64,000 bases of DNA from Eledone cirrhosa (lineage: Eukaryota): contig OZ024756.1 of assembly GCA_964016885.1 (NCBI GenBank), positions 44,516,001-44,580,000 on the forward strand. Reading direction: 5' to 3'. Below, piece after piece: positions 26,787 through 29,364 of this stretch. Within the stretch, counting starts at the first letter, position 1. Each line of letters begins with the position of its first letter. Made by a program: the position numbers and the translations under genes. Under the pieces are notes generated by a model. It saw only the letters and a list, made by a program, of their open reading frames with translations, searched no databases and was not told where the DNA came from.

Positions 26787-27147
26787 TAGAAAGTGAGGTG
26801 TTTTTTACAAAATGAAAAATAACCGAGGTGTCCAACACGAGTGAAAGTATAAAGAAAAAGAGATGAAATCGAAAATGCAACTGAAGTCTTATTTTTTTTT
26901 TAAATATATATATTTATTTGGTTCCTTTACCGGTTTCGCAGTTCTTCTGCTTTTCAAAAGGTGAGTTGAGATGGAGGGTCTGTGGTTTTTCTCACATCTG
27001 TGAGAAAAACCACAAACCCTCCATCTCAACTCACCTTTTGAAAAGCAGAAGAACTGCGAAACCGGTAAAGGAACCAAATAAATATATATATTTTTTTTTT
27101 AAATAAGACTTCAGTTGCATTTTCGATTTCATCTCTTTTTCTTTATA
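26787..27147. mobile_element. Palindromic element, copy 1 (~150 bp arms, 26848-27147), in (TA)n
   Basis: Near-perfect inverted repeat centred on ctcaca-tc-tgtgag. The arms carry GAAACCGGTA (the 3' half of a hammerhead), and there is a ~60 nt one-sided tail. Confidence 0.85.
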
Positions 27148-27735
27148 TATATATATATATATATATATATATATATCCTTCGTTCTTCAGGAGCATACAG
27201 CTATAGTAGCAGAGCATTTATAATTCAAATTTATATGAGATGTATAGATAAATAATAATTGTTTCTACTTTTGGCCCAAGGCCAGCAATAACCCAGTGCA
27301 TTACTGGTACTTTATTGTATAGATAAATAATAATAATTCTTGTGTATATTCAATATACAGTATATATATACATTTGGTATATAAGGATGCAATTCACTTC
27401 TAGCACTCGACGTCATATTACTTATTGAAAACAAGGATGACGAAGTATGTTTATAAAGAGGAGAATGCGAAGTTTAAAATGTTAGAGTCCTTTATTATTT
27501 GAACCGTTAAACATATTTCTATTAATAAAGGACTCTAACATCTTCAACTTCGCATTTTCATATATATATATATATGTGTGTGTGTGTGTGTGTGTGTGTG
27601 TGTGTGTGTGTGTGTGTGTGTGTGTGTGTGTGTGTGTGTGTGTGTGTGTGTGTGTGTGTGTGTGTGTGTGTGTGTGTGTGTGTGTGTGTGTGTGCGCGCG
27701 CGCGCGCGCGCGCGTGTGTGTGTGTGTGTGCGTGT

Positions 27736-28694
27736 AAATTTTAGTACAGCATTAACGGCCAAGCTAACGAATGCAGAATCGGTCTGTAGCTTTAGCACTC
27801 GGATGGGGAAAAGAACCCCAGAGTAATAACAATACGTTCAGACAGCTTAGCAAATCAGATATAGCGGTCGACAGTGCAGCCGCATCACTAGAGCAACAGA
27901 AATACAGGACCCAGGAAAAGATCTTAGACTGACCTGGACAAAGCGGTGAGGCTGAATGCAAAATATATAATGTACATCGTATATCACACAATATACATCA
28001 CATACAGCACCCAACATCAGCGCTAAGTTCCTGCAAATCCAAGATCGACAAATTCCGCTTGCAGGAGTCTGCAATATAATGGTTTTTAACGACAGAACAT
28101 AGGATTTCCTTCTTCAGCAAGTCTTTCGTTCTTAACCTGAGCGGACATGTTGTAGCTTTAAATTTCGCCACAGACACGTGATTTTCTCCAAGGGAGGTAA
28201 CCCCCGCTTAGGCGGTGAATTCCAATTTGAGAGAAAGGAATGAATCCCTTTAGACAAACCGAATTAAGCACTCAACCAGAAGTTATCAAACAAACATAAA
28301 CAATTAATCAATCAATAGAATCATCTAATTAGATTAATCAGTTAATCATTAATTCTAGGAGTAAATACAAATTTTAGTACAGCATTAACGAAGCTTTAGA
28401 ACACAGCCAAGCTAACGAATGCAGAATCGGTCTGTAGCTTTAGCACTCGGATAGGGAAAAGAACCCAGAGTAATAACAATACGTTCAGACAGCTAAGCAA
28501 ATCAGATATAGCGGTCGGCAGTCCAGCCGCATCACTAGAGCAACGAAAATACAGGACCCAGGAAAAGATTTTAGACTGACCTGGACAAAGCGGTGAGGCT
28601 GAATGCAAAATATATAATGTACATCGTATATCACACAATATACATCACATACAGCACCCAACATCAGCGCTAAGTTTATGCAAATCCCAGATCG
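27736..28694. repeat. ~315 bp direct repeats (27736-28048 and 28369-28694) around a ~320 bp spacer
   Basis: aaattttagtacagcattaacg...gcaaatcc(a/c)agatcga is present twice with few substitutions and one short indel. Confidence 0.9.
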
Positions 28695-29009
28695 AATGTA
28701 TATATATATATGGAGTAAGTTATAGTTCACTTGAAGAATTGTGTAATGAGGTATAAACGTTTGTATATGTATAATAAAGCCAAAACAATGCAGGTATGGA
28801 GATAGAATAAAGAATGCAAATGCAAAAGATATTGTTGACAATTAGTCCTTGTTGACCTTAGATTTATTTAAATGTCCTTCATTTTCGAGATAATATCTCT
28901 TCTTCGGAGGGAAGTAAAACGGTTAAACCAGTGTTCTAAATAGCTTGCCAAGTCATGCTGACAGGAAATGGTATAGACTATATATATATATATATATATA
29001 TATATATAT

Positions 29010-29364
29010 TAGAAAGTGAGGGTTTTTTACAAAATGAAAAATAACCGACGTGTCCTACACGAATGAAAGTATAAAGAAAAAAAGATGAAATCGAAAATGC
29101 AATTGGAGTCTTATTTTTAAAAAAATATATATTTATTTGGTTCCTTTACCGGTTTCGCAGTTCTTCTGCTTTCCAAAAGTAGAGTTGAGGTGGAGGGTCT
29201 GTGGTTTTTCTCACATCTAAGAAAAACCACAAACCCTCCATCTCAACTCTACTTTTGAAAAGCAGAAGAACTGCGAAACCGGTAAAGGAACCAAATAAAT
29301 ATATATTTTTTAAAAAATAAGACTCCAATTGCATTTTCGATTTCATCTTTTTTTCTTTATACTT
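29010..29364. mobile_element. Palindromic element, copy 2
   Basis: Same tail, arms and centre as 26787-27147; preceded by (TA)n. Confidence 0.85.

Follow-up and report, generated by a model that had tools for sequence, protein, structure and literature searches.

Results

Two palindromic pLTR pairs embedded in (TA)n

The two palindromic elements between positions 26787 and 29364 of the 64,000-nt window (C17:44,516,001-44,580,000) belong to a family of head-to-head pairs derived from an endonuclease-containing (EN+) Penelope-like element (PLE), and each probably represents a single (TA)n insertion of two copies of the first 150-215 nt of that element, both cut ends of the target having primed on one RNA. 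Each copy consists of a palindrome with arms of about 150 nt plus a 61-nt extension, or tail, on the left only, and both copies are embedded in (TA)n microsatellite with TA runs on either side. They are 91.4% identical to each other in the window sequence. A preliminary description of this DNA had listed variants specific to each copy and repeated in both of its arms, and these were confirmed; the one-sided tail was not mentioned there, nor was a T/A run that is unequal between the two arms of copy 1 and of copy 2 alike. Element positions are numbered with the A of AGATGTG as +1.

Copy 1 spans 26787-27147, with its palindromic part at 26848-27147. The tail (26787-26847, minus strand) is confined to one arm and ends in (TA)n at about +213 to +219 of the element, the same end as in 100 of 126 junctions collected from the genome; in parent copies L188, L190, and L191 the sequence extends from there into ORF1. 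The tailed arm (26848-27000, minus strand) runs from +1, the likely transcription start at 26999, to about +152. The tail-less inverted arm (26999-27147, plus strand) covers +4 to about +152, carries a G>A change at 27015, and ends with CTTTATA in (TA)n, again the end seen in 96 of 126 junctions. The arms meet at 26991-27004 in the string CTCACATCTGTGAG, where the tailed arm reaches +1, the tail-less arm begins at +4, and the two overlap by the 2 nt TG. This junction string recurs at loci L025 and L292, whose right arms have G at the position of the G>A change. The T/A run is T10A3 at 27091-27103 on the plus strand, whereas its counterpart in the left arm (26892-26904) is T3A10 when written in that orientation.

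Copy 2 spans 29010 to about 29364, with its palindromic part at 29070-29361. Its tail (29010-29069, minus strand) also ends in (TA)n, the tailed arm (29070-29218, minus strand) runs from +1 at 29218 to about +151, and the tail-less inverted arm (29219-29364, plus strand) starts from about +7, has G>A at 29232, and stops a few nucleotides past the usual site. Local duplication was ruled out as the origin of the two copies, as their subfamily haplotypes differ in both arms. Capture of the intervening 1.9 kb by two pLTRs is likewise unsupported, each copy having its own two ends in TA runs.

Three other features of the window were recorded. A second, unrelated imperfect palindrome with AT-rich flanks lies between the two copies at 27471-27560 and is possibly another small inverted insertion. 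Two direct copies of an approximately 300-nt repeat, 95% identical and spaced by 647, occupy about 27735-28050 and 28380-28695. A tail fragment of the same PLE family stands alone at 17031-17081.

The parent is an EN+ PLE with a separate ORF1

The arms in the window match the pLTR repeat found in loci L190, L191, and L195. The genome (3.0 Gb) was searched for relatives, yielding 604 candidates, 40 of which were scored. An arm 20-mer occurs exactly 14,407 times and the tail-end sequence at least 4,662 times, and numerous copies run beyond the palindrome centre into a long UTR and then a coding region. Locus L190 is a complete unit of 4,679 nt encoding a reverse transcriptase (RT) with a C-terminal GIY-YIG endonuclease, and both it and L191 have the layout pLTR-tail-ORF1-ORF2-UTR-pLTR. 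The search for a parent PLE urged by the preliminary description succeeded with an intact 4.7-kb element, and the CUGANGA box presumed missing from the arms proved to be UUGAAAA, which they contain.

ORF2 of L190 (775 aa) has RVT_1 at 296-441 with E 4.9e-6, below the Pfam cut-off, and GIY-YIG at 682-772, 27.6 bits above it; Pfam revealed no RNase H in ORF2. In the translation, by eye, the endonuclease has the CCHH motif LIYAIKCKGCNEDYIG, with two cysteines between GIY and YIG followed by two histidines. The linker CGRSNCGTC ahead of the endonuclease fits CX2-5CxxC. As judged from these domains the parent is an EN+ PLE, and the linker motif points to the Neptune/Nematis clade as the putative affiliation, the motif not separating Neptune from Nematis.

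ORF1 of L190 is 409 codons long, stop to stop, and gave no Pfam family to E 0.1 and no Atlas result. It overlaps ORF2 by 90 nt in a different frame, the two frames lying within +214 to +3680 of the L190 unit (C1:399.39 Mb), and the overlap length is identical in 25 of 25 copies (within L187-L226), so the canonical single-ORF form is absent here. In the overlap, the ORF1 frame holds T TTT TTA, which we take to be a slippery site, making a -1 ribosomal frameshift a candidate. A separate ORF1 is compatible with PLE membership because the Fig. 1 legend of PMC8557442 allows some PLE types an ORF1 set apart by a frameshift; literature searches on this point added nothing further.

Other elements were seen beside copies of this family. 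Frames for RT or RT/GIY-YIG of different PLE-like families adjoin its copies at L170 5591-7525 and L173 3200-4450, and L172 has broken pol-like frames of an LTR retroelement at about 270-2780 on the minus strand. Small palindromes of other families occur in the same TA runs at L171 4200-4420, L014 about 240-350 (printed strand), and L170 3150-3400, which suggests that other families behave alike.

A complete minimal hammerhead in each arm

The preliminary description had credited the arms with no more than the 3' half of a hammerhead. In each arm the minimal type I motif is in fact complete, lying at +39 to +76 and having a U3-A8 core (UUGAAAA in place of CUGANGA) that excerpts of PMC4209133 list as a known variant of the PLE minimal hammerhead core. 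In copy 1 the right-arm motif (27034-27071, plus strand) comprises stem I CCTT/AAGG, the core TTGAAAA, stem II GCAG/CTGC, GAAA, and the palindromic ACCGGT, with predicted cleavage after TA; it is mirrored in the left arm at 26924-26961 (minus strand). The copy 2 motifs lie at 29143-29180 and 29251-29288. Core boxes (C3-G8 or U3-A8), helices I and II, a palindromic helix III, and G10.1-C11.1 are all present, and the core columns are conserved in 179-182 of 182 arms. Both stems form on folding, with a z of -0.85 that is by itself no better than shuffles. An Rfam scan of 26500-29600 returned 48 matches to E 10, all under the gathering score and none to a hammerhead family; the best were to microRNA hairpin models and reflect the palindrome.

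Self-cleavage of these arms, as a dimer or assisted by protein, is putative. Hammerhead cleavage was ruled out as the origin of the palindrome centre, the predicted site being +72 rather than +1, and the arms cross +72 intact. A retrozyme identity was also rejected, since head-to-tail monomers are needed and the window copies and all 126 junctions are head-to-head. The asymmetric ends, the variable centre, and the retroelement parent excluded a MITE or foldback DNA transposon.

Arms pair by locus, and the central mismatch is not fixed

Both window copies have C opposite A at 17-18 nt from the centre (26980/27015 in copy 1, 29199/29232 in copy 2), and the preliminary description had proposed that this mismatch, together with one shared centre, is retained from a template-encoded hairpin. 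Junction patterns with a spacer of <=10 nt, in which symmetric loci count twice, gave 1,078 genomic matches with G and 89 with A at the mismatch site. Sampling took in nearly every A locus but, of the G loci, just those listed first, and the sample is therefore enriched in A. The 170 loci plus the window gave 127 junction records, reduced to 126 by removal of one false match. Alleles were compared in the 91 records with both arms well aligned (the other 35 had an arm that was short or poorly aligned), and grouping by side or by locus was judged by column and distance tests.

The claim that arms co-vary within each copy was borne out across the family. The mean distance between arms was 3.1% within loci versus 6.7% between loci (0.031 against 0.067 for shuffled partners), and the minimum in 1000 shuffles was 0.061, above the observed value. 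At all nine common sites the arms paired by locus, with 1-7 discordant loci where 18-43 were expected. No column was side-specific (lowest uncorrected p 0.064). Same-side and opposite-side distances were equal (0.1261 vs 0.1261) in the inner ~40 nt, the region predicted to group by side. Among 11 long inversions the arms differed by 0-1.3%, a distance under the median to other loci for 17 of 22 arms, and the partner arm was not always the closest relative (L202, L205, L216, L195).

The mismatch itself is present in both window copies, as described, but is not fixed in the family. In 88 loci of the A-enriched sample the genotypes at this site were G/G 56, A/A 25, G/A 4, and A/G 3, and G/A was found at none of the 57 loci unselected for A. 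The A is an allele of an older subfamily. Some same-side mismatch was shared in 14 of 1,596 pairs of unselected loci. The mismatch common to the two neighbours is incidental and may be a chance finding after selection, the trace of conversion over less than ~32 nt, or an error in the consensus. Nor is the centre shared: it reads CTCACATCTGTGAG in copy 1 and CTCACATCTAAG in copy 2, with more than 60 centre strings among the 127 records.

Rare variants bear on arm-to-arm gene conversion, the alternative that had been offered for the co-variation. Of 172 such variants, 154 are in one arm only and 18 in both; because so many are unshared, conversion must be slower than mutation, which disfavours ongoing conversion as the source of the symmetry. 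The AC versus TA subfamily site differs between arms at 3 of 82 loci (L025, L057, L068), and arms with unlike subfamily alleles require two templates or subsequent conversion. We found no G>A bias of the kind left by cDNA deamination (18 non-CpG G>A on 13 G columns; 33 C>T on 21 C columns). The T/A run has a hypervariable boundary and near-constant length throughout the family, with the same total in 36 of 46 loci, and it is unequal between arms in 14 of 19 loci whose arms are otherwise identical. These shifts may stem from quasi-palindrome mutation at a very high rate, slippage of the RT, or errors in the consensus.

Two fixed outer ends and one tail per insertion

The outer ends fall at one of two sites, about +151 (TTTATAC in the parent) or +213 to +219 (CTAATATATAC), which are 61-68 nt apart and each offer TATA to the target. 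The distal, tailed end is fixed in 100 of 126 short palindromes and the proximal, tail-less end in 96. One tail was found in 111 of these, both ends were tailed in 1, and 14 were decayed or tail-less. In the centre-anchored subset of 115, one tail was present in 100 and two in 1, as against 57 and 23 expected if the ends were independent.

Long loci follow the same rule. The 43 analysed consisted of 3 plus 40 picked from 124 protein matches; 16 are solo copies (11 tailed, 5 untailed), and the other 27 carry 28 inverted junctions, in which the tail is on the long arm in 16, the short arm in 9, neither in 2, unknown in 1, and both in none. The tailed arm is more often the longer one (16:9 among long, 37:22 among short), and L212 has just 21 nt common to its two arms. 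The long junctions are direct, with overlaps of 0-9 nt or short fillers (22 shown) and no (TA)n target between the arms. None of the 28 short arms ends at +1, versus about 60% of all arms, which argues that the two arms do not come from independent RNAs. At L187 (C4:28.49-28.50 Mb), two near-identical inverted insertions lie end to end with one junction string, one of them tailed and one not; this arrangement ruled out a tandem unit.

Inner ends stop at the likely transcription start

Inner ends were placed in 78 consecutive arms, the first of the matches listed on C1. Forty-eight fell in +11 to -1, 3 in -20 to -25, and none in -2 to -19, while 27 continued, 6 of these having been scored short at an indel and judged continuing by eye. 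The 8 ends scored at -1 are inverted junctions, in which the partner can supply that G, and solo copies extend to +1 at most. Genome counts of 20-mers at +55, +11, -32, and -80 were 14,407, 11,227, 3,544, and 2,300, figures affected by subfamily variants. Because arms pile up at +1 and TATAAAA is found at -30, +1 is likely the RNA 5' end and transcription start, where cDNAs would run off. A cap-templated extra base would fit L283, L071, L153, and L101, too few for use. At L270, L288, L290, and L273, short copies of terminal sequence are reiterated at +1 junctions, which suggests that template jumping recurred at the 5' end of the RNA.

Loops of 0-2 nt were found in 58 of 126 centres. Just one hairpin is predicted at the +1 cDNA end (-3.1 kcal/mol), and the junction expected from it was observed at 0 of 48 stops, with L231 near it. 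Some centres lie kilobases upstream of +1. The tail-less arm extends further upstream than the tailed arm in 22 of 89 clean short junctions and 9 of 25 long ones; 4 of the 22 short cases are among the 18 loci with identical arms.

Discussion

A two-ended insertion model and its rivals

The reading to which we attach a fair measure of confidence is that each palindrome is one insertion formed by two coupled priming events. It builds on the parent unit, the fixed outer ends, the single tail, the shared subfamily alleles, inner ends at +1 to +11, and overlaps of 0-2 nt. One target end would prime at the distal site and yield the tailed arm, and the other would prime at the proximal site and yield the tail-less arm, both sites lying in the same repeat of the same RNA. 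The trailing cDNA would displace the leading one, so that one stretch could be copied twice by strand displacement; to our knowledge, PLE RTs lack RNase H. Synthesis by each RT would stop when the enzyme dissociates or arrives at the 5' end of the RNA, after which the 3' ends of both cDNAs would be joined through microhomology. Priming in the promoter-proximal repeat would give short run-off palindromes, and priming in a downstream repeat of a read-through RNA would give long, unequal inverted insertions. The occurrence of the tail on the short arm (9 of 25), together with loops of 0-2 nt, would follow if each target end primes its own cDNA. Fold-back of a single cDNA fits poorly, because the tail could not be copied from a tail-less first strand. 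Loop flipping by inter-arm recombination could mimic some of the tail-on-short-arm cases and so weighs against a two-ended origin, as do the 3 of 82 loci whose arms have unlike subfamily alleles, the long inversions in which another locus is closer than the partner arm, and the excess of insertions with the longer arm tailed. All junction data come from the consensus of one genome assembly.

The closest biochemical parallel is Poseidon PAc of Anolis, for which excerpts of PMC11167929 report that the protein, modelled as a dimer, cleaves and extends both strands of an AT-rich target in vitro and initiates RT at a pair of internal sites delimiting the tail. Hammerhead cleavage is dispensable there, as the uncut arms across +72 suggest it may be here. 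The PAc start sites lack target homology, whereas both sites in this family carry TATA. The anole PLE also had no strand preference for either start site, a result that weighs against the coupling of the two sites that we propose. Inverted copies and two-site coupling are not treated in the excerpted main text of that study. A stronger form of the model, to which we would give somewhat less than an even chance, is an obligate two-ended reaction in which a dimeric RT-endonuclease would use two staggered sites and a single RNA, leave exactly one tail per inverted insertion, and produce thousands of promoter-proximal run-off palindromes that map the transcription start.

An unlikely explanation is that fold-back comes first and trimming later: a cDNA initiated beyond the tail either stalls or is extended as far as the 5' end of the RNA and then jumps onto itself, the endonuclease makes staggered cuts in the resulting double-stranded stem at the two TATA sites, and the product integrates in either orientation. 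This yields identical arms, one tail on either arm, and the +1 stop, and it accords with the repeated template jumps at L270, L288, and L290, with excerpts of PMC8557442 that explain the tail by an intermediate which the endonuclease resolves, and with the self-priming that excerpts of PMC3846280 infer from palindromic junctions. Yet the loops of 0-2 nt in 58 of 126 centres are too short for a self-annealed primer, the sole predicted cDNA-end hairpin is unused, solo copies end at either outer site with the same +1 stop, and the two RT start sites in the excerpts of PMC11167929 account for the tail with target-primed extension on both strands. We give very little credence to the model of the preliminary description, by which one target-primed cDNA folds on a template-encoded central hairpin, rebuilds the second arm, and keeps a fixed asymmetry. 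A PLE origin and a single source for both arms of each insertion hold, the arms co-vary by locus, and the tailed arm is longer in the majority, but neither the centre nor the asymmetry is fixed and the inner columns have no side signal. In 9 of 25 long junctions and 22 of 89 short ones, the tail-less arm has upstream sequence that the tailed arm lacks. If copying ended by TA homology, frequent stops would be expected near +85, where the TATATATAT run is longer, but 96 of 126 lie at about +151. The hairpin model is already contradicted unless all of the reversed cases are later inversions.

An independent RNA or a separate insertion for each arm, followed by homogenisation through gene conversion, seems to us highly improbable. 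The few loci with unlike subfamily haplotypes between arms and the 18 rare variants common to both would suit it; the 154 of 172 unshared variants would not, and the many two-tail insertions, short arms ending at +1, and (TA)n targets between arms at junctions that it calls for were not seen. We find it scarcely credible that assembly or polishing made or perfected the symmetry. Palindromes are difficult to assemble, and the T/A-run difference in 14 of the 19 loci whose arms otherwise agree could be consensus error, but the flank on each side is unique, both ends are fixed and unlike each other, private arm differences increase with subfamily age, and one architecture spans arms of 0.09-4.6 kb and has been published in other animals.

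Relation to known elements

The inverted pLTR, the one-ended tail, and the junction palindromes are already known, and the palindromes described here are ordinary PLE architecture. Excerpts of PMC8557442 describe Neptune/Nematis EN+ PLEs with RT followed by a C-terminal GIY-YIG with internal cysteines and a CX4CX2C linker motif, and with pLTRs formed by partial tandems, an adjacent inverted 5'-truncated copy, a one-ended tail, (TA)n targets, and a hammerhead in the repeat. Their tail is 30-40 nt, in contrast to 61-68 nt here, and unlike those elements, as excerpted, the present family has very many promoter-only palindromes and, in 25 of 25 copies, an ORF1 that is distinct from the RT frame and overlaps it. 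The same excerpts call the formation of PLE tandem and inverted structures undefined. Penelope of Adineta vaga, in excerpts of PMC3846280, resembles this family in its head-to-head inverted pLTR, shorter than the direct one, in the tail on one inverted repeat, and in TATA and Inr-like motifs near the repeat start. Antisense-template self-priming was inferred there from few loci, whereas the approximately 150 junctions here favour a sense RNA whose end is +1, together with two coupled primings. A promoter inside the pLTR, TATA-less in D. virilis, appears in an excerpt of PMC2377424, and the excerpted part of PMC13282606 contains nothing on these palindromic structures.

In LINE-1 twin priming, both target ends prime on one RNA and microhomology joining produces a 5' inversion; the internal position at which the second primer lands varies, and each cDNA represents a different part of the RNA. 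In the present family, by contrast, both starts are fixed and both cDNAs span the same stretch. The non-LTR retrozymes of bioRxiv 10.64898/2026.07.22.740005, as excerpted, are likewise short, non-coding, hammerhead-bearing derivatives of PLE pLTRs, but they form head-to-tail tandem arrays, whereas our copies are tailed head-to-head pairs with no sign of their own transposition. No published proposal of two-ended priming for PLEs was found in the literature searched, as far as its excerpts go; older subscription reviews (Evgen'ev, Arkhipova) lay outside that search, and Fig. S2 of PMC11167929, on tail ends, may bear on the question.

The fixed central asymmetry that first drew attention to the window copies is not real at the level of the family. 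What this young and abundant family does provide is a set of countable rules, namely one tail per inversion on either arm, the +1 stop, and near-zero loops. These rules separate models in a field where the standing proposal is self-priming, and they predict the outcome of an assay that exists for another PLE. If the stronger form of our model is true, the obligate two-ended reaction would supplant self-priming as the account of PLE head-to-head repeats.
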